Source: Escherichia coli (GTDB lineage Bacteria; Pseudomonadota; Gammaproteobacteria; Enterobacterales; Enterobacteriaceae). Taken from it: a stretch of 64,000 bases of DNA. Location: NCBI RefSeq assembly GCF_003018255.1, contig NZ_CP027440.1; one strand, written 5' to 3'. A model generated the notes under the pieces. That model saw only the letters and a program-made list of their open reading frames with translations, had not been told where the DNA came from and did not search any database. Below, one piece after another: positions 5,872 to 30,004 of the stretch. Position 1 is the first letter of the stretch; every line of letters begins with the position of its first letter. Made by a program: the position numbers and the translations under genes.

Positions 5872-5938
5872 TTGAAGCTCTCCTTATACTCAATGATTAG
5901 CAAAGTAGGAGAGCTTCAGAGGTGAAGCAGCTAAAAAA

Positions 5939-7180
5939 TCATTTCACTACATGAAGAATTTTTAGCATAGAGTTGTCAATGGTCTGTTTGATTTTCTCGT
6001 AATAAATTGGTTCAGATAATGGCGAGTCCCAGGTATGTATATCATTTTTATCAAAGGGAATACATTTCATCGCTGTCTTTTTTAGTTTTTTCCCTTTTTG
6101 TTCGTACTCGTCAATGTCATTTACAGTGAATTTCAAACTTTCTATTCTTGCTTTGACTATTGCTGTTGGGCAGATGAGTTTTATATTCCCTAAAGTAAAT
6201 GTGTTAACTCCAGTAATGAAGAATCTATCAGGGATGTTTTTATAGTATCGAGTATTCCATATTTTACCATTAAACATACCTGCTGGGTGAGTTGCTCTTT
6301 CAATATAGTATTCATGGGTTCTCTGGTCACTAATCCCTGAAAGATTCATTGTCATATTAGCTATCATGTTGGGAATAGGTCTGTACCAAACGCTAAGTGC
6401 AGCGGTTGCGACAGGTATAAATATTAAAACAACAATAATTCCTGTCATTTTATTGCCGTTTTGCCGTTCATTAATATGTATGATACCAGGCAGAATGCCA
6501 ATTGTAACAATAACTACAGTTATGGCAATGAGTATGCTCATCTCATACCAGTCACTAGTACCCTCACTGAAATTAAGTTGGTTAAACAGAAACATCATTG
6601 GTAATATTTGTACTACTCCAGGTATTATAAGTTGTAAGGATAACCAGAAGTTGAATCCTTTCTTTCTGGATAGTTTTTCGTATCGCACTGTATTATTTAA
6701 GCGAGATTTTTGTTTTCTAAATAGCCGAATCGCACATGTAACATAGCTGTGAATAAATATGGAAATAATACTAAAGGCTGTAATTATGTAGCCATTCCAT
6801 TTTGTCATGTAATAAATGTAATAAGCAATGATTAGCAGGCAGCATATAAATAAGCTATTCTGATAGCAAACAGTAGAAATCCGATGGGTGATGCTAGAAT
6901 ATACCTTTAACTTGTTTTCATATCCAGAGTAAATAAGTATTAAAATAAAAGATGAGATGAAAATTATTAGGCTGAATCCTGATATCGATAATAAAATAAA
7001 AAAGAATATAATCCCTAAGGTTGAACTGAGGTTTACAGCATCGAAAAAAATATCTAATCTATCAATGTTTGATAGGTAAAACCATATAACTGCTATCGTG
7101 AATCCAGTGATGAAGGTAGATGAGGTTACTACTGAAATAATGAATTTTTTGTTTATGATATTAAAAATAGGTTTGTCCAT
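5939..7180 (-). CDS. AT-rich cargo protein: polytopic membrane N-terminal half (~8 TM helices) plus C-terminal soluble domain, unknown function
   Basis: 413 aa ORF; conspicuously AT-rich, I/K/N/Y-rich codon usage unlike the GC-rich ICE backbone; no recognisable catalytic motif. Confidence 0.6.
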   Translation of the reverse strand: MDKPIFNIINKKFIISVVTSSTFITGFTIAVIWFYLSNIDRLDIFFDAVNLSSTLGIIFFFILLSISGFSLIIFISSFILILIYSGYENKLKVYSSITHRISTVCYQNSLFICCLLIIAYYIYYMTKWNGYIITAFSIISIFIHSYVTCAIRLFRKQKSRLNNTVRYEKLSRKKGFNFWLSLQLIIPGVVQILPMMFLFNQLNFSEGTSDWYEMSILIAITVVIVTIGILPGIIHINERQNGNKMTGIIVVLIFIPVATAALSVWYRPIPNMIANMTMNLSGISDQRTHEYYIERATHPAGMFNGKIWNTRYYKNIPDRFFITGVNTFTLGNIKLICPTAIVKARIESLKFTVNDIDEYEQKGKKLKKTAMKCIPFDKNDIHTWDSPLSEPIYYEKIKQTIDNSMLKILHVVK

Positions 7181-7225
7181 GGTTTGAATTCCATCTCTAA
7201 AAAATTTCTTGTCTTGTGTTTTTTA

Positions 7226-7510
7226 TCACCAATTTACAGGTAAGCGCCGATGGGTATGAAACACGCGTAAAACCTGAATTATATTATTTCGTACTCGATA
7301 GGGAATGATATAAGGGTAATTATGAAGAATGAGCTCACGTGTTTCAGGTACCCTTCCTTCCCGGCCCATAGCGGGTTGCTCTTTGAGCAGTTGCGTAAGT
7401 CGCCAGACTTCGTTCACAAACCGTTCCGCAGCCTGCGGATCGTCTTCAGCAATATACCGGAACTCAGCTTCGAGATTGGCAATGGCTTTACGTAGCCACT
7501 TAATTTCCAT
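7226..7510 (-). CDS. Type II toxin, RelE/ParE family
   Basis: 94 aa ORF with RelE/ParE-like size and sequence; overlaps the upstream antitoxin gene by 11 nt. Confidence 0.7.
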   Translation of the reverse strand: MEIKWLRKAIANLEAEFRYIAEDDPQAAERFVNEVWRLTQLLKEQPAMGREGRVPETRELILHNYPYIIPYRVRNNIIQVLRVFHTHRRLPVNW

Positions 7511-7745
7511 CTGGCTTTACTCCCAGACGTTGAAACAGCTTATCCACCTCATCTGAAGTGGCAAAATCACCGGCATCAGCTTCCTGAATGGCCTGCTCAA
7601 TCTCTGCAACTTGCCAGGCCTCCCGGGCAACATAATCTTCAATTGCCTGATTTGCCAGCCAGGACTTTGAGCGTCCGGTCGCTTTTGATAATGCTTCCAG
7701 TTGCGTGGAAAGATTGTTGTTTAAACGGACTGACATTACGCCCAT
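7500..7745 (-). CDS. Type II antitoxin, ribbon-helix-helix (ParD/CopG-like)
   Basis: ORF track 7500..7820; likely start ATG at 7745 (MGVMSVRLNNNLSTQLEALSKATGRSKSWLANQAIEDYV); ~80 aa, immediately upstream of and overlapping the toxin. Confidence 0.6.
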   Translation of the reverse strand: MGVMSVRLNNNLSTQLEALSKATGRSKSWLANQAIEDYVAREAWQVAEIEQAIQEADAGDFATSDEVDKLFQRLGVKPDGN

Positions 7746-21210: not shown

Positions 21211-23157
21211 ATGAATTTTGAAGAGCTTATAAATGATATTGAAAGACTCTTAATTGGTAAAGAGTTGCAGTCTATAAATCCTAACACCCCCCCATTATTC
21301 CTTTTAAAAATAGACAGGGATATTGGTAAATATTACGTGTCTGTTTCTTTAAATGCTAAGCCTACGGCAAGGTCAATTTCTGAATTTGAATATATATTTA
21401 ATGACTTACTGCGTAAAGGGTTTTGTAATGTAGATCAGTCATTATATGGTAGCTCTTCAAGCCGTAATCACCCGGAAACAATATTTGCAAACTTGCCTTA
21501 TATTCAATTCTTTAAGTTCAAGAAAAAGAAACATATATTATTACGTAATAAAAATGTACACGAAGCAGGTCAACTTTCTGAATTACAAGGGGCTGAGTCT
21601 CGTGCTATAAGGAAGCAAATAGAAAATTATTTATCTCTAAATTTAAGTGAAATTGCAGAGCAGCAGTTAAAATCGTTGGAAAAAATGTTCGATGCGTATG
21701 ATGCTATTTTAAAAAAATACCCAGGGGATATCCCTGTTATAATGGCTGAGCAAGGCTTGTTGGGATTAAAAAACATTAGCGAAGTACTGATTAATTCTTA
21801 TGTTTCCTTGGATTTTGACAGTAGTGGCGATAAAATAAATAAATTAAGTAAATTTAAACAGGTGGAGTTATTTAAAGAAGATTTATCTTTAGAGGATTTA
21901 ATTGAGTCCCCTGAGATAAGTGGAGTTGATTCAGGTGATAAGAATATTGAGGAACAATCGGAATCAGAATTAGCACCTGAGCAAAAACGTACGGGCATTG
22001 CAAAAATGCTTATGACTACACCAGTTTTAACACTAATTTTTGATCGTGTAAGATATGATGAAATTGAGTTACAACCTGACTTTCAGAGAAAAGACCGAAT
22101 TTGGCCTGACGACAAAAAGTCAAAACTTATTGAATCAATATTAATGAAGCTTCCATTACCGGGGTTTTACTTTGGTGAAAAGCCAAACGGTAACTGGGTA
22201 GTTATTGATGGCCTTCAAAGAACGACTACAATTTGTGATTATATGAGTGGTCATTTCTCATTGAAAGGGCTCTCTATTTTAGAGCACTTAAATGGAAAGA
22301 GTTTTAAAGATCTTACTCGAACCGAGCAACGAGACATTAGAGAGTATCAAATTACGGCTTACCAAATAGAACTAAATGATGATAGTTCTGAATTGGTTGT
22401 AGAACTATTCCATAGAATAAACACTTATGGTGTAAAGTTAAGTAGTCAAGAAATAAGATCTGCACTTAATAAAGGCAATAGCGTAACCTTTTTACGTTAT
22501 TTAGCTTCATTAGAAACGTTCAAAAAAGCGACGCAATTTAAAGTAAAGCCGGACAGGCAAAAAGATATGGAGCTCTGTTTGTCCGCTCTTGCTTTTATGG
22601 TACTTGGTTATAATAACTATGGCCAACATTCGTATGATCATTTTTTATGTAGTGCAATGCAGAAGCTAAATAATTATCCATTAAGCATCATTAATAAAGA
22701 AGAGATTGATGCTGGAACAGCTCTTATTTCTCCTTCAAGTGAAGTCTTTTTAACTTTATATTCAAAATATAATCAGGCTTTAATCTTAGCAAATGAAGTT
22801 TTTGGTGAAATAGCTTTTTCAAAAGATCCGGAAAATAAAAAATCACCTATTAATAAACAACTCTTTGAGTTAATTGTTACTGTTTTCTCTGTATTTGACT
22901 CACATCAAAAGGAGATGATGTTAGCTAATGGTGATAAATTTATTGATAGCTTATACTTGGCTATTGAGGAGAATAGTAGTCGATATGCTAAGTGGGAGTC
23001 TGATACATATGAAAAGGACGATAGAGGATTTAGAGACTCAATATCTACTTCGACAGGTAAAAGAATATCTGTTGTATATCGATTTGATGCTTTTTTAAAT
23101 ATCCTTGGAAAAAGCACAGGAATAACTATTGATAGTAAATTATTACAGGGGGAGTGA
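21211..23157 (+). CDS. DUF262 / ParB-like (GmrSD N-terminal-type) domain protein with unknown N- and C-terminal domains
   Basis: 648 aa; central region has LQPDFQRKDRIW and DGLQR (variant of the DGQQR motif); no recognisable DUF1524/His-Me nuclease motif; AT-rich. Confidence 0.7.
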   Translation: MNFEELINDIERLLIGKELQSINPNTPPLFLLKIDRDIGKYYVSVSLNAKPTARSISEFEYIFNDLLRKGFCNVDQSLYGSSSSRNHPETIFANLPYIQFFKFKKKKHILLRNKNVHEAGQLSELQGAESRAIRKQIENYLSLNLSEIAEQQLKSLEKMFDAYDAILKKYPGDIPVIMAEQGLLGLKNISEVLINSYVSLDFDSSGDKINKLSKFKQVELFKEDLSLEDLIESPEISGVDSGDKNIEEQSESELAPEQKRTGIAKMLMTTPVLTLIFDRVRYDEIELQPDFQRKDRIWPDDKKSKLIESILMKLPLPGFYFGEKPNGNWVVIDGLQRTTTICDYMSGHFSLKGLSILEHLNGKSFKDLTRTEQRDIREYQITAYQIELNDDSSELVVELFHRINTYGVKLSSQEIRSALNKGNSVTFLRYLASLETFKKATQFKVKPDRQKDMELCLSALAFMVLGYNNYGQHSYDHFLCSAMQKLNNYPLSIINKEEIDAGTALISPSSEVFLTLYSKYNQALILANEVFGEIAFSKDPENKKSPINKQLFELIVTVFSVFDSHQKEMMLANGDKFIDSLYLAIEENSSRYAKWESDTYEKDDRGFRDSISTSTGKRISVVYRFDAFLNILGKSTGITIDSKLLQGE

Positions 23158-24305
23158 TGAAAAAAATTACGTCTTTAACATTAAAAAATTTCAAAGCTTA
23201 TAAAGAACAGAGTTTTGATTTTAGTAATTTAACTGTATTTTGCGGTAATAATTCTGTTGGTAAAAGTACGGCTATTCAAGCTATCGGTATGTTTCTCCAA
23301 TCAGATATGAATGGTAACAGTAATCTAAAAATAAATGGCGATTTAGTTCATGTCGGAGACTTCGACGATATTCATAATTTCAGTATGCGTGAGGATGATG
23401 TTTTATATTTAAAATATACATTTGAAGACGATACGGCTTGCTGGGGATATGGTATAGAAGAAGGGGATGCTAGAGAAGAACTTTCTAGGAAAAATGAATT
23501 ACCTTTTATTGGGTGTGATAAACAATTAAGAACTATAACAAACTCACTTAAAGATAACTTTTCATTCCAATATTTGGAAGCGGAGAGATTTGGTCCAAGA
23601 GATAATATTCCATTATCACAGCACAATTATCATGAAGGTTGGCTTGGGAAAAATGGGGAACATACAATTGAAGTTCTTGAGAGTTTGGTCACAAGGAGGC
23701 GTTTAAATTTTTCTGCTCAAGAGGATCCTAGGAAACATGAAGGAATTATTAATAATAATGTTTTCAATCATATTGAAGCATGGATGTCTGAGATTTCACC
23801 AGGGCATCGTATCTCACCTAGAATTGAGGCTAGGGCGAATGTTGCATTTAATGTCATAATCCCTTCACCTGGACAATTAACGAAACCTATTAACATAGGA
23901 TTTGGATTTAGTTATGCTCTTAGTATTGTCACTGCTTTAATGCTGGCATCAAAAAATGAACTCGTTATTATTGAAAATCCTGAGGCTCATCTACATCCAA
24001 GAGGTCAAAGCTATTTAGGACGACTTATTGCTTTATCAGCAAAAGCAGGGATCCAGGTTATTATTGAGACTCATAGTGATCATCTTCTTAATGGCATAAG
24101 AGTAATTGCACGCACAGATCCAACTTTTGATGCTTCTCTTTTTACTCTTTACTATATTTCACGAGAAAATGATGAAACATCTGTCGCCAAAATAAAAATA
24201 AATAATGAAGGGAAACTTTCCGAATGGCCTAGAGGGTTCTTTGATCAACAATCACAGGATATGTATACGATAATGACAGGCTCTTTTGATCATCCCAATA
24301 TTTAA
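23157..24305 (+). CDS. ABC/SMC-like AAA ATPase (AAA_15/AAA_21-type with DUF3696-like C-terminal region)
   Basis: ORF track 23154 (GTG); ATG at 23157 overlaps upstream TGA (TGATG) with GGGGAG RBS. Walker A GNNSVGKST; ENPEAHLHP Walker B/D-loop signature; ETHSDH H-loop. Confidence 0.75.
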   Translation: MKKITSLTLKNFKAYKEQSFDFSNLTVFCGNNSVGKSTAIQAIGMFLQSDMNGNSNLKINGDLVHVGDFDDIHNFSMREDDVLYLKYTFEDDTACWGYGIEEGDAREELSRKNELPFIGCDKQLRTITNSLKDNFSFQYLEAERFGPRDNIPLSQHNYHEGWLGKNGEHTIEVLESLVTRRRLNFSAQEDPRKHEGIINNNVFNHIEAWMSEISPGHRISPRIEARANVAFNVIIPSPGQLTKPINIGFGFSYALSIVTALMLASKNELVIIENPEAHLHPRGQSYLGRLIALSAKAGIQVIIETHSDHLLNGIRVIARTDPTFDASLFTLYYISRENDETSVAKIKINNEGKLSEWPRGFFDQQSQDMYTIMTGSFDHPNI

Positions 24306-24324
24306 TATTGTAGGGACATATAAA

Positions 24325-25209
24325 ATGAAAGCTGGCGTGTTTCTTATTCCTGAATGTTTTGATTTCAATACGGATATTTTATCTTTAAGTTCGGACCTTG
24401 ATCTGGCTTCGAAACTCGTAGTAAATACCCGTTCAGAATTTATTCACTTTATGAAATCTAGGGAGTTTGACTCGAAGATTGCGGAGTTATTGTTTTCCAC
24501 ATCACCTGATTATGCTGGAATGATGTCAAGATTTTACGATCAGCATCTATCAAAAGTTATAAAAATGGATATTAATGACGATGATATTATTGATATTATA
24601 AATAGCGAAGAACCTAAGTATTCTAACCGTTTGTTATCAATTTTTAATACGGGAAAAAAAGATTTAAATATTAAATATGTTAATAGATTAATTGACTCAG
24701 AAATTAAGATGAATGATTATTGTACTGATATCTTATTGAATTACCCAAGAAATGACGAGCAATACTGTGAGGATATACAGCAGGTTTATAAAAATTTAAT
24801 TTTCCTAGATTATCCAGAGGCAAAAGAATTTAAGACATTTAATAGTCTCAAGAGAATGACCGGTGGTTATGATAATTTCTTGAAGGCTATAACCAATTTT
24901 TTAAGTTATATGAATAAATTCGAATTCAAAACGAAAGATATGATGGATACATTGAAAATGATGGAGAGTGATTTAGGATCTCCAGTAACTCCGGAAGGAG
25001 GGGGGAAGAAAAGCCGATCTTTGAAAAGAGATTTTTTAATTAATGGAAAGCTATATACAAATGTAAACTGCGAATTCCATTTGAAATTAGAAAATGTTGA
25101 TGATACTAAGGGAAACAGAAAACACCATAAGAATAGAATTTATTTTGGATTTATTATGATAAGTGATAAAAACAGAGTGGCAATAGCTCATATTGGGGAA
25201 CACATTTGA
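24325..25209 (+). CDS. Hypothetical protein, third gene of the DUF262-ATPase operon
   Basis: ORF track 24286..25209; ATG at 24325 with AGGGA RBS follows the ATPase stop by 20 nt; 294 aa, no recognisable motif. Confidence 0.5.
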   Translation: MKAGVFLIPECFDFNTDILSLSSDLDLASKLVVNTRSEFIHFMKSREFDSKIAELLFSTSPDYAGMMSRFYDQHLSKVIKMDINDDDIIDIINSEEPKYSNRLLSIFNTGKKDLNIKYVNRLIDSEIKMNDYCTDILLNYPRNDEQYCEDIQQVYKNLIFLDYPEAKEFKTFNSLKRMTGGYDNFLKAITNFLSYMNKFEFKTKDMMDTLKMMESDLGSPVTPEGGGKKSRSLKRDFLINGKLYTNVNCEFHLKLENVDDTKGNRKHHKNRIYFGFIMISDKNRVAIAHIGEHI

Positions 25210-25219
25210 AATCATTTTA

Positions 25220-25248
25220 AACCTACTGATAGTATATATCAGTAGGTT
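25220..25248. terminator. Perfect palindromic hairpin between convergent operons (likely bidirectional terminator)
   Basis: AACCTACTGATAGTATATATCAGTAGGTT between stop of the plus-strand operon (25209) and stop of the minus-strand restriction gene (25271). Confidence 0.5.
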
Positions 25249-25270: not shown

Positions 25271-26344
25271 CTATATAACACAATCTTCCATAAAAGAATC
25301 TAGAAATAAATCATTTATTCCTTTAGGTTTTCTTCGGTCGCATAGAGAGTATAATTCTTCAACTGAAGAGTAAGGGAAGAATTTAGCTTTTAATTCAATG
25401 AATTGGGGCATGTTTGCAAATTCTATCACCTTTGCTCGATATTCATCAGGAGCAACGATAGTCCAACGGATATCTTGTAATCTCGGTGCATGATCATAGA
25501 ATTGTTTCATGCGAGTCAGACCACTTTTTATACCAGTACTGTGTTCAATCTCCATTACTGCTGGCATCATGCGGCCTTCCCTAAACCAAATGCAGTCTAT
25601 AAGACGAGCATCTTTAATCGCATCATTATACGATTGGAGTACTTGCTCATCAGATAATGAACTTATTACACCGTCCATTTGCGCTATAGCTTTACCATTA
25701 TATTGTAAGCTACGATCATTGGCTGCTACCCAAGTATCTAAACCTAAACAATAACCTATTTTTACTAAGGCAATTTGTATCTGAGCATGACGTCTTTTTT
25801 CTTCAATAGTCATGCCTTTAGTCGGTTTAATTGTCTCAATATCAACGCTTTGGTGAACAACATCGAAGCTCATTTCAGAGACAACAATATTAGTCTGGTG
25901 CTCAATTAACAAACCATTAGTATGTGGCATATCTGGCAGAAAAATCAGATGCTTATGTCCTGGTTTTATAGACTTTTGTGCATTCATGATTTCCAGTCTG
26001 GCTGGCCTACACCAATAGAACTCTGGAGTATGTGCGAGCAAGCTCTCCAATACCGAGCGGGTGTTGTAACTGGCACCGAAAACCCTTTCAACGTTGACAG
26101 GTCTGTTTTCTTCGAGTGCATTTGCAAGTCGCCAAAGCATTTGAGTCGAAATACTCTCTGTTTTAGCTGTTGCTTGAGTTTGACCTTTCTTAGGATCAAA
26201 TCTCTTTATTTCGATAGGACCTTCGGGATGTTGGATACGTACAATCTCAATCTTCCCGCTATTCCTATCGTTTATATAGTTAAACAGCGTATTTTTGGGT
26301 AAGCTCGAAATCGCCTGAACCAGATTCGATGCTGTTATCCTCAT
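25271..26344 (-). CDS. Putative Type II restriction endonuclease partnered with the adjacent C5-methyltransferase
   Basis: 357 aa ORF directly downstream of and overlapping the MTase 3' end (about 65 nt, ATG at 26344 with AGGA RBS); no family motif recognised; call is from gene context. Confidence 0.5.
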   Translation of the reverse strand: MRITASNLVQAISSLPKNTLFNYINDRNSGKIEIVRIQHPEGPIEIKRFDPKKGQTQATAKTESISTQMLWRLANALEENRPVNVERVFGASYNTRSVLESLLAHTPEFYWCRPARLEIMNAQKSIKPGHKHLIFLPDMPHTNGLLIEHQTNIVVSEMSFDVVHQSVDIETIKPTKGMTIEEKRRHAQIQIALVKIGYCLGLDTWVAANDRSLQYNGKAIAQMDGVISSLSDEQVLQSYNDAIKDARLIDCIWFREGRMMPAVMEIEHSTGIKSGLTRMKQFYDHAPRLQDIRWTIVAPDEYRAKVIEFANMPQFIELKAKFFPYSSVEELYSLCDRRKPKGINDLFLDSFMEDCVI

Positions 26345-27419
26345 TACTGTATCCTAAATGTTGCAAAATTGATTGGGCAATACCGAGCGCGGCGATATAG
26401 GGAACTCCGTTTCCGACTGTTTTAAACATATTCGACAAAGTCATATCCCCTGGTAGCTCAAAATTTTTTGGCAAAGACTGGATTGCCAATGCTTCAGCGA
26501 CCGTAATACGACGAGGTTTGTATGGGTGAAGGTGAACTTCATTATTACCATATGCTGCTGTTGGAGAGTATCTCCAGCGATGAAGCCTTTTATATGATTT
26601 TTTACTATCGTCGCCTTCTTCTACTGACTGGAATCTTGCTAAACCGGCTCGGGCCGTAAATACATGTTTAGCGTTTGGATGATTGGTAACATCGTTTTTC
26701 TCGAACCAGTATTCTATAGTAAGTTCTTCTGGAATACCTTGCGGGCATTCCATACTTGAGTCTTCTTCGTATGTGTTTGTTGTTGGCCAAGGGAACTGGA
26801 AAGCTTCCTTATTGGGGTATATTTGGCCACTCCATTCGAAGTTTTTGGCTAAAGACTTATCAAGAAAACCAACTAAAATAATCCTTTCTCGATCTTGAGG
26901 CGCACCGTATTCAATTGAATTAATCAATCTTTCATGCAGGATATATCCTACTGAAGCTAGTTCATTCTTAATTTGTTCGAAAAATTCTCTATGTTTAAGA
27001 GTCCGGTATAAGCCTTTAACGTTTTCAAAAAGGAAGAAATCAGGCATCATTTCAATTATCAGGTCAATGTAACTTTGTGATAATTTGCCATTTTCACCAT
27101 CTTTGCCTTTGTTTTTGCCAGCAACAGAAAAGTCAGGGCATGGTGGTCCGCCAATGAAGCCCACTAGGCGGTTTTCACCTTTCAGTGTTTTCATGCTATG
27201 CTTAATCACTGAATGCTCAATAGTTTCAATGCTTTCTTGGGCATACCCAAAGCGTGGCGGCTGTTTGCCAAGTTTTTTTCTTGAGTGTTTATACGCGTCC
27301 ATGAAGGGAGGATGGAATTCATTGACGAAAACCACCTCATACCCGGCATTTTCGAAGCCTAGGTCAAGAAAACCTGATCCTGAAAAGAATGAAAATATAG
27401 CGGGTTTCATTGTGGACAT
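26280..27419 (-). CDS. DNA cytosine-5 methyltransferase (Dcm-like)
   Basis: 379 aa; motif I FSGSGF, PC motif GGPPCPDFSVAGK, ENV motif ENVKGL. Confidence 0.85.
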   Translation of the reverse strand: MSTMKPAIFSFFSGSGFLDLGFENAGYEVVFVNEFHPPFMDAYKHSRKKLGKQPPRFGYAQESIETIEHSVIKHSMKTLKGENRLVGFIGGPPCPDFSVAGKNKGKDGENGKLSQSYIDLIIEMMPDFFLFENVKGLYRTLKHREFFEQIKNELASVGYILHERLINSIEYGAPQDRERIILVGFLDKSLAKNFEWSGQIYPNKEAFQFPWPTTNTYEEDSSMECPQGIPEELTIEYWFEKNDVTNHPNAKHVFTARAGLARFQSVEEGDDSKKSYKRLHRWRYSPTAAYGNNEVHLHPYKPRRITVAEALAIQSLPKNFELPGDMTLSNMFKTVGNGVPYIAALGIAQSILQHLGYSNEDNSIESGSGDFELTQKYAV

Positions 27420-27644
27420 TTTATACCTATCAAGTTAGCTTAAATTTTTACTAAATATCTCGCTGTACGATCCTACTATTTTACATGATAACTTGTTAAT
27501 TATCAATTTACTTTTTAATATATTAGCAAATAAGACCTGGCACTACTTCAGATTAGATAGTATTCATTGCTATAAAGTTAGGTGTTAATATATTGATTAA
27601 TAGTATAAGCTGCTATTATAGATTTAGAAACCGAAGGAACTTAT

Positions 27645-28100
27645 ATGCCTGATATGAGGTTATTTAAATCAAAAAACACCAAACTTGAGTTAAGAATCAG
27701 GAAGCCGTTGTTTGCCAGAGGATTTCGTTATCGATTGCATAATAGTGGTTTGCCTGGTAGACCAGATATGTATTTCCCTAAATACAATGCAGTCATTTTT
27801 ATCCATGGCTGTTTTTGGCATGGGCATGATAACGGCTGCCCTATATCTCACACTCCTAAAAATAATGAATCGTACTGGCAAAATAAAATCAATAAAAATC
27901 AAGAAAGAGATGTCAAAAATCAATATGTTCTTGCATCTAAAAACATCCGCGTTCTGATTATATGGGAGTGTGCAATAAAACTTAAAAGTATTGATTTTGT
28001 CGATTTTATTGATTACATCGATGAATGGCTTAGAGGTGGGGCAAATTCAACACAGATGAGCGCAAAGGAACCAATGCCGACTTTTGAGTTTCCGAAATGA
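27645..28100 (+). CDS. vsr: Very short patch repair endonuclease (Vsr)
   Basis: 151 aa; Vsr-like sequence incl. FIHGCFWHGH; divergent from the C5-MTase as is typical. Confidence 0.85.
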   Translation: MPDMRLFKSKNTKLELRIRKPLFARGFRYRLHNSGLPGRPDMYFPKYNAVIFIHGCFWHGHDNGCPISHTPKNNESYWQNKINKNQERDVKNQYVLASKNIRVLIIWECAIKLKSIDFVDFIDYIDEWLRGGANSTQMSAKEPMPTFEFPK

Positions 28101-28282: not shown

Positions 28283-28423
28283 ATGCTTCAATCTCTGAAC
28301 CACTTAACGCTCGCCGTCAGTAATTTGCAAACTAGCCTGACATTCTGGCGCGATTTACTAGGGCTACATGTGGGAGATTTAGCATCCCGACTGACGCAGT
28401 GCCGGGAGAGGCCTTGCTCTTGA
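28283..28423 (+). pseudogene. fosA: Remnant of a fosA-like (glutathione transferase, fosfomycin resistance) gene with large internal deletion
   Basis: 46-codon ORF MLQSLNHLTLAVSNLQTSLTFWRDLLGLHVGDLASRLTQCRERPCS: first ~28 aa match the FosA N-terminus and the rest matches the FosA C-terminal HVGSLAARLAACRE region, from memory. Confidence 0.45.
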
Positions 28424-28555: not shown

Positions 28556-28588
28556 CAAAGGCGAGTCCGGCCTTCGACCTTCGCACCA
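28556..28588. repeat. Degenerate copy of the 3' end of tRNA-Leu (leuX): candidate distal att repeat (attR) of the genomic island
   Basis: GCGAGTCCGGCCTTCGACCTTCGCACCA resembles the leuX 3' end GGTTCGAGTCCGGCCTTCGGCACCA (from memory); no full tRNA present. Confidence 0.45.
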
Positions 28589-29353
28589 TCGGAACATCAA
28601 TAGACGTCAACGGACGTTTTTTTATGACTGAAATCCGCGCCACACAAGGCTTTTCGCTATTTTTCGCTCAACCTAAGTCAACCTACATCAACTTACTGAT
28701 GTGGATACAGCTACAGCTGCGGCTATATCCCGATTCGATAATGTTTGTACCCACACAAAACCCTTGAAAGGCTACAAGGCTGAAATTGTCTAAACCATAG
28801 AGATGATTTTTATGATCCAGTCTTTCTCTTGTTGAGATAGTTCCAGTTTGCTCACTCGTGTTAAGAAGGTATTGATCACCTGAACATCCGAATTGGTGAG
28901 CCTATTTAATAGAGCGGGTGGTATACCTTTACTAACAATCGCTTTGCGGTGACTTTCGTAGTTTTTATTACTCATTGTTGATCCTCAAAAATCATTGTAT
29001 GGCGGCATTGATCGTTTCCAGCAACCTTTACTTACTCACTTCGAACTGCATCCTCGTAGACTGTTCCACTACAATAATCGAAAAGGCGCGGATGTCCATT
29101 CAGGTATCCCGCTAATACGTATAGCAATAACAATGGCTTATGCGGCGCGCGCTGTTCACCCTTGTGCCAGATTTTTATATTGGCAATTGCCTGCTGTAGC
29201 GATTTACTGGAAGCCATTGATATCCCTGGCAGTGAAATAATTGCGATCATGCTCGCAAATTTTCTGCTGTTCAAGCCTGCAAGTGAAGATATATTACCTT
29301 GATCTCATTTGTTTTTTTGCTGCCTGTTCTGAGAACGTATAAGGACATTCTCC

Positions 29354-30004
29354 ATGAATAAACTCCCTGATCATCTTCCGCGGCGGTATATCATCGAAGC
29401 TATCCATTTATGGGATGCGGGAGAAACTCATCAGTTCCAGCCTGCGCGGTTGTATGAGATTGAATATCATGGCCGACGTTACCCCTCGAAGGCGATTGCT
29501 GGCATCGCAGCGACATTGATGACGGGGACGCAATTTACCCCTGCGGATTTCACCGGCGGAATAAAATCTAAATGCGTCAAACTACTCATAGAGCAGGGAT
29601 TTCATATTCATCAGGATAAAGCCGCTGCGGCTCCCATAGCCGACGTTCTGTTCCCGGATGAGTTGCCGTCGCAGGAGACATACCTTGAAGGTGCGGCGAT
29701 AAAGGTGACAGTAAACCGCTATGAACGCGATAAAAAGGCCCGAGATAAAGCGGTCGAACATCATGGATGCCAGTGCAACGTATGCGGCGTTGATCTGGTG
29801 AAGATCTATGGTGATATCGCTGAAGGCTTTATCCATATGCATCACCTGGTGCCGCTTTCAGCCATTAAAGAGGATTACCAGCTGGATCCAGTTAATGATT
29901 TGCTGCCTGTGTGCCCTAATTGCCATGCGATGCTGCACCGACGCAAACCACCGTTTTCACCGGAGGAGTTAAAAGCGTTGATGGATGCAAATAAATCAAA
30001 TTAA
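29354..30004 (+). CDS. HNH endonuclease with uncharacterised N-terminal domain
   Basis: 216 aa; C-terminal HNH motif CQCNVCG...HMHHLVPLS...N...CPNCH. Confidence 0.7.
   Translation: MNKLPDHLPRRYIIEAIHLWDAGETHQFQPARLYEIEYHGRRYPSKAIAGIAATLMTGTQFTPADFTGGIKSKCVKLLIEQGFHIHQDKAAAAPIADVLFPDELPSQETYLEGAAIKVTVNRYERDKKARDKAVEHHGCQCNVCGVDLVKIYGDIAEGFIHMHHLVPLSAIKEDYQLDPVNDLLPVCPNCHAMLHRRKPPFSPEELKALMDANKSN

Follow-up and report, generated by a model that had tools for sequence, protein, structure and literature searches.

The 64,000-nucleotide stretch of Escherichia coli DNA analysed here (the window) carries a C5-cytosine DNA methyltransferase gene beside a gene for a 357-aa protein that PGAP annotates as a 'hypothetical protein' (WP_024196156.1). 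Is this protein a restriction endonuclease, and do the two genes form a restriction-modification (R-M) system? A sequence-only reading of the DNA had proposed a Type II R-M pair with a divergent vsr gene, calling the endonuclease from its context alone. The methyltransferase gene (M) encodes 379 aa at 26280..27419 on the minus strand, and the gene for the 357-aa protein (R) lies at 25271..26344 on the same strand. The 3' end of M overlaps the 5' end of R by exactly 65 nt in the ORF coordinates (26280..26344), matching the approximate figure given in that reading. At a distance of 7 nt before the R ATG is an AGGA Shine-Dalgarno sequence, and the R homologues all start with MR(I/V)TA.N, which confirms the R start codon and hence the overlap. 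On the plus strand, divergent from M as had been described, is the 151-aa Vsr very-short-patch repair endonuclease gene (27645..28100). The GC content over 21-28 kb, including M, R and vsr, is 0.32-0.41, compared with mostly 0.53-0.66 in the ICE backbone, where there is a single AT-rich dip at 6-8 kb, and about 0.39-0.57 in the E. coli core. The block is thus AT-rich relative to both, as the sequence-only reading had stated.

The 357-aa protein was compared with family and structure databases. A precomputed Pfam match to PF27126 (NmeDI_C) is on record for the exact 357-aa sequence and also for a 96%-identical homologue. R matched the PADLOC model REase_II PDLC03534 over its full length (residues 2-357) with an E value of 3.2e-120. 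The protein has 1798 homologues and, among the matches listed, all carry PF27126; RefSeq gives an E. coli homologue with 71% identity the title 'type II restriction enzyme NmeDI-related protein', and the name NmeDIP is attached to a metagenomic homologue with 55% identity. Homology, and no longer context alone, thus identifies the 357-aa protein as a restriction endonuclease. No match to R was obtained in NCBIfam, in a copy of Pfam-A lacking PF27126 or, by sequence search, among PDB sequences. Together with the PGAP label, these null results would fit a protein that is not a nuclease, such as a regulator or methyl-directed reader that just happens to adjoin the methylase. The NmeDI_C and PADLOC matches, and the synteny and fold evidence described below, make such a protein very unlikely, and we consider the probability close to negligible. 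No non-nuclease family, a possibility that the sequence-only reading had raised, was matched by the protein.

The AlphaFold2 model of R has two domains and a mean pLDDT of 86.5. The N-terminal domain (aa 1-156; 25877..26344, minus strand) is presumed to recognise the DNA sequence and is highly conserved across the family. It is joined through a low-confidence linker (aa 157-175; 25820..25876, minus strand), with pLDDT <50 at residues 157-167 and 170-174, to a C-terminal cleavage domain with a predicted PD-(D/E)XK fold (aa 176-357; 25274..25819, minus strand). The linker is also the least conserved part of the R alignment. The best structural matches of the predicted C-terminal domain were the cleavage domains of BspD6I and FokI, and other restriction enzymes. 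Residues D250, E265 and E267 do not vary among 77 sequences, nor does K280 in a 12-sequence alignment. Since these residues are positioned in the alpha-beta-beta-beta-alpha core of the model, we propose D250...E265-x-E267 together with K280 as the candidate active site. The lysine position of the motif holds a Glu (E265-x-E267), and such an E-x-E in place of the lysine motif would resemble BamHI. The FokI active-site motif reads D...DxK and differs from the candidate D...ExE of R. R also differs from the Type IIS enzymes FokI and BspD6I in having no sequence similarity to them, in its unrelated recognition domain and in its predicted target, which is symmetric, so that bilateral cutting would be expected. 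Among the 50%-identity representatives, many proteins match R at residues ~180-355 only and have different N-termini, which makes the cleavage domain a reusable module.

M scored 162 bits against TIGR00675 (cutoff 100.65) and 535.6 bits against PADLOC MTase_II PDLC03355, and matched Pfam PF00145 with an E value of 2e-52. The C5 motifs I, IV, VI, VIII, IX and X occur in the usual order (FSGSG, GGPPC94PDFS, E132NV, Q175DRER, R303RITVAEA and G336NGVP), with the catalytic Cys94 within GGPPCPDFS, which bears out the earlier statement that all conserved motifs are present. M ends in a non-conserved tail of ~22 aa, and it is this tail that overlaps the start of R. Membership of the Dcm (CCWGG) subfamily was rejected, with a score of 22.7 bits against NF007772 (cutoff 710); the orphan Dcm-like enzyme that had been considered in the sequence-only reading is not what this locus encodes.

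To the homology and the predicted fold can be added a conserved M-R arrangement, so that the endonuclease call now has three kinds of support in place of context. We scanned contigs for 80 related R loci drawn from Proteobacteria, Bacteroidota, Bacillota, Elusimicrobia and other groups. In 77 of the 80, R is directly preceded on its own strand by an M-family methylase that is 53-76% identical to M. The other three have no usable M: two contigs begin inside R or shortly before it, and the third locus (L070) has only a partial M match. Judged from approximate start positions, R begins before the end of M in 72 of the 77 loci.

A system with this layout could have lost its cutting activity, leaving a solitary methylase with Vsr that serves in epigenetic marking or is the decaying remnant of an R-M system. 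Solitary RCCGGY methylases exist, such as VchM of V. cholerae, and Vsr occurs also beside solitary methylases. Against this, the R ORF is full length and keeps all the family-invariant residues, and the exact R sequence is found in many assemblies, always accompanied by M. Sequence comparison further indicates that the R gene is under purifying selection (dN/dS 0.11 relative to the C. koseri allele); the dN/dS of M relative to the C. koseri copy is 0.18. An inactive nuclease therefore appears improbable, and we consider it highly likely that the locus encodes a complete, probably active NmeDI-family Type II R-M system with an accessory Vsr.

The prototype of this family is R.NmeDI of Neisseria meningitidis (2120/ST-11; AJ238948), a 351-aa enzyme that recognises RCCGGY, cuts 12/7 on each side of it and excises about 25 bp (PMC2095814). 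It is a tetramer that prefers two sites in cis, has Mg2+ as its sole requirement and, in E. coli, brings about a roughly 10^-3-fold restriction of lambda (PMC2095814). In a review it is classed as a symmetric Type IIS enzyme (PMC4081073). The system analysed here resembles that of NmeDI in several respects. R has the NmeDI_C domain and a similar length (357 compared with 351 aa), the C5-methylase is directly upstream on the same strand, and R starts within the 3' end of M. Both systems have an attached Vsr, which is assigned to the NmeDI system (PMC7973814), and neither has a C-protein. There are also differences. The overlap is 65 nt here, whereas the R.NmeDI gene begins 9 codons inside the 3' end of its cognate C5-methylase gene (PMC2095814). 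The present system lies in an enterobacterial ICE at leuX and the Neisseria system at the pheS/pheT locus, and vsr is here divergent and upstream of M.

The tie to the characterised R.NmeDI is provided by the Pfam family name and by database annotations. None of the 80 related R loci in the contig scan was from Neisseria, the 50%-identity cluster representatives of R, including one of 351 aa, bear no Neisseria names, and a homologue search seeded with the 351-aa representative found no Neisseria R.NmeDI. Assignment of the locus to the NmeDI family of R-M systems is, on this evidence, a conclusion that we hold with high confidence. Other classes of enzyme were also considered. The Type IIB enzymes such as BcgI and BsaXI have a nuclease and methylase fused in one protein and a bipartite target; this class was ruled out, as R has no methylase domain and methylation here falls to a C5 enzyme encoded by a gene of its own. 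Placement of R in the CCGG family (Cfr10I/NgoMIV/SgrAI) was likewise rejected, as R has no sequence homology to those enzymes. Cfr10I, BsrFI, NgoMIV and SgrAI (Type IIF/IIP) are single-domain enzymes that cut inside their site, whereas R is modelled as a two-domain protein and is without sequence homology to them (see also PMC2095814). The Type II R-M pair proposed in the sequence-only reading is therefore upheld in its M-R layout and by the nuclease homology, with the qualification that an orthodox Type IIP classification probably does not apply, since the family is of the NmeDI type and its prototype makes its cuts outside the site, on either side of it.

What the system recognises is a separate question. 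We consider it reasonably likely, with less confidence than for the family assignment, that the recognition site of R is RCCGGY. The variable region of M (residues 260-300) is near-invariant in 116 homologues and the N-terminal domain of R is equally conserved, making it plausible that one specificity is shared across the family. The frequency of the site in the surrounding DNA was also analysed. In the ICE backbone, RCCGGY occurs 17 times against 38 expected. The non-target class YCCGGR is equally depleted, with 17 observed and 40.5 expected, suggesting general palindrome avoidance, and the depletion of RCCGGY was accordingly rejected as evidence of specificity. RCCGGY methylation occurs in E. 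coli MRE600 and ST95 SF-166; neither strain is among the 45 E. coli records carrying a homologue.

The site frequencies gave no specific support for RCCGGY. An alternative reading is that the E. coli/Citrobacter enzyme belongs to the NmeDI family and has a specificity other than RCCGGY or cut distances other than 12/7. Specificity may shift within a family, and members of this one diverge to about 30-50% identity. The target sets of the prototype are already unequal, with M.NmeDI recognising RCCGGB, slightly unlike the RCCGGY of the nuclease (PMC2095814). Both the recognition domain of R and the variable region of M are strongly conserved, which would be unexpected under diversification, and we regard a differing specificity or geometry as a minority reading, less probable than RCCGGY with prototype-like cutting.

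On the preferred reading, that of an NmeDI-type system directed at RCCGGY, the following mechanism can be proposed. The methylase would place 5-methylcytosine on the host copies of a short palindromic site, most likely RCCGGY, or RCCGGB in terms of the prototype methylase. The nuclease would have a Type IIS-like build, in which an N-terminal recognition domain is joined by a flexible linker to a C-terminal cleavage domain of FokI-like PD-(D/E)XK type, and would bind unmethylated incoming DNA and cut it at a distance. The site being symmetric, cuts would be expected on either side of it in the manner of R.NmeDI (12/7 each, releasing ~25 bp, as a tetramer), and cutting may be more efficient with two sites, again as in R.NmeDI. 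Specificity, cleavage geometry, oligomeric state, coupling and activity of the system are all features that we infer.

The third gene of the block encodes an intact enzyme by sequence. Vsr scored 118.3 bits against TIGR00632 (cutoff 97.85), confirming the earlier identification, and aligned with the E. coli Vsr (1cw0) with an E value of 1.3e-26. The segments GRPD, HGCFWH.H..C and WEC all align, and the catalytic Asp and the zinc-site residues are conserved. In this system Vsr would nick T:G mismatches that arise from deamination of 5mC, offsetting the mutagenic cost of the methylase. The E. coli Dcm-Vsr pair is similar in that a C5-methylase is paired with Vsr and T:G mismatches are repaired after 5mC deamination. 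In contrast to the overlapping genes of that pair, which form one operon, M and vsr are divergent here, a cognate nuclease is present in the locus and the methylase is not Dcm. Across the 80 related loci, Vsr was found within 5 kb in only 22, at varying positions and in varying orientations. This shows that Vsr is an optional accessory of the NmeDI family and not a fixed component.

We also examined the sequences that may control expression of the three genes. M and vsr are separated by a divergent, AT-rich control region of 225 bp (27420..27644), which has no assigned strand and contains no ORF of at least 50 aa. Promoter-like sites at 27506->27478 (minus strand) and 27567-27594 (plus strand) are candidates only, as the promoter scan of this spacer gave a count that did not exceed the shuffle expectation. 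No controller (C) protein gene was found at the R-M locus. Translation of R is probably coupled to that of M through the 65-nt overlap. Downstream of R, a hairpin with a 12-bp stem (25220..25248) separates the stop codons of the convergent genes nsnC (25209) and R (25271), and is possibly a bidirectional terminator for the two genes.

The window is a piece of the E. coli chromosome. Positions 1-20.9 kb of it are a PFGI-1-class ICE, integrated at tRNA-Leu (leuX), and the R-M genes are at its distal end beside the Menshen defence system NsnABC (21211-25209; PADLOC; cf. PMC12065111). The 3' end of tRNA-Leu is repeated in degenerate form at 28561-28588, a copy that probably marks the distal boundary of the element. 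With the boundary at this position, Menshen, the R-M pair, vsr and a truncated VOC/glyoxalase gene would all be ICE cargo. The region is 99.8-100% identical in only 3 of 5426 complete genomes. In C. koseri, too, the Menshen-R-M-Vsr block comes after these ICE genes, and in the other assemblies examined the block is again present together with the exact R protein. Alleles of M-R with 69-71% nucleotide identity are present in 39 other E. coli genomes, including IAI1. Two of these genomes were examined, and in both the M-R pair is again next to leuX, with no vsr annotated near it.

The NmeDI family is already described, and this locus adds a further, ordinary member to it. It leaves the understanding of R-M systems unchanged; bilateral cutting, the lack of a solved relative and the pairing with Menshen give it a mild interest. 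WP_024196156.1, a 'hypothetical protein' in RefSeq, can now be better annotated as a restriction nuclease belonging to a known family. Enzymes of the NmeDI type have an unusual mechanism, the cutting of a palindrome on both sides, and since sequence search gave no relative of R in the PDB, a member borne by E. coli would be a convenient model. Collectively, these results show a two-system defence cassette, Menshen together with an NmeDI-type R-M and Vsr, on a PFGI-1-type ICE that moves between E. coli and Citrobacter, and such a cassette would shape which phages and plasmids are acceptable to its hosts.

The restriction-modification/Vsr block, comprising the NmeDI-family nuclease gene (R), the C5-methyltransferase gene (M) and vsr, is bordered by three co-directional genes (21211-25209, plus strand) that match the PADLOC profiles for NsnA, NsnB and NsnC. 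The first encodes a 648-aa DUF262/GmrSD_N protein (NsnA, E = 1.7e-113), the second a 383-aa DUF3696 AAA ATPase (NsnB, E = 1.3e-104) and the third a 307-aa protein (NsnC, E = 1.7e-83). By these profile matches, the trio is a Menshen antiphage system. The Menshen genes and R are in convergent orientation, and Menshen accompanied the R-M/Vsr block in all assemblies examined.

On the other side of the block, the 3' end of tRNA-Leu (leuX) recurs in degenerate form as GCGAGTCCGGCCTTCGACCTTCGCACCA (28561-28588), which is probably the remnant of the distal attachment site of the integrated element. Directly upstream of it lies a VOC/glyoxalase gene (28284-28367), which is truncated in the window compared to the full-length gene in the C. 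koseri copy. Two further nuclease genes are located between the element boundary and nanS, namely a fragmentary gene for a ScoMcrA-like restriction endonuclease that binds phosphorothioated DNA (~29068-29217, minus strand) and an intact gene for a 216-aa HNH endonuclease (29354-30004, plus strand). In E. coli VCSW5, an intact PT-dependent enzyme occupies the position of the ScoMcrA-like fragment.

Palindromes of 6 bp centred on CCGG were almost absent from the backbone of the integrative element at leuX (ICE; window 1-20900, 58% GC), with counts of 0 for GCCGGC and TCCGGA and 1 each for CCCGGG and ACCGGT; CCGG overall was over-represented, with 166 sites observed versus 122 expected. The scarcity of these palindromes looks like general restriction-site avoidance by a mobile element. 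An AT-rich dip within the backbone (33-44% GC, ~5938-7744, minus strand) is a second cargo insertion, which encodes a RelE/ParE-CopG toxin-antitoxin pair as well as a hypothetical protein of 413 aa. In an identical E. coli record, PGAP marks the gene for the ICE topoisomerase III (~13885-15690, minus strand) as a pseudogene carrying an internal stop, and the ICE may therefore be impaired.

Another 39 complete E. coli genomes carried divergent M-R alleles, at 69-71% nucleotide and 71-77% amino-acid identity. In both of the loci examined, from VCSW5 and PapRG-04-4, the divergent pair adjoins tRNA-Leu leuX; the two pairs are carried on different small islands, and no vsr is annotated near either. 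The nuclease is called 'NmeDI-related' in only two of the E. coli records listed and hypothetical in all others. A nuclease 100% identical to that of E. coli was also found on a 7.8-kb contig (JAEZCC010000032.1) of the MAG 'Bacillota bacterium OH_CBrB_227'; this contig most likely comes from an enterobacterium and was mis-binned.

When R of E. coli (25271-26344) was compared with that of C. koseri (10001-11074 of its locus), dS was 0.29, approximately five times higher than the 0.06 obtained for M, and the amino-acid differences in R were clustered at the C-terminus. Together, the unequal dS and this clustering suggest recombination within the R-M cassette.
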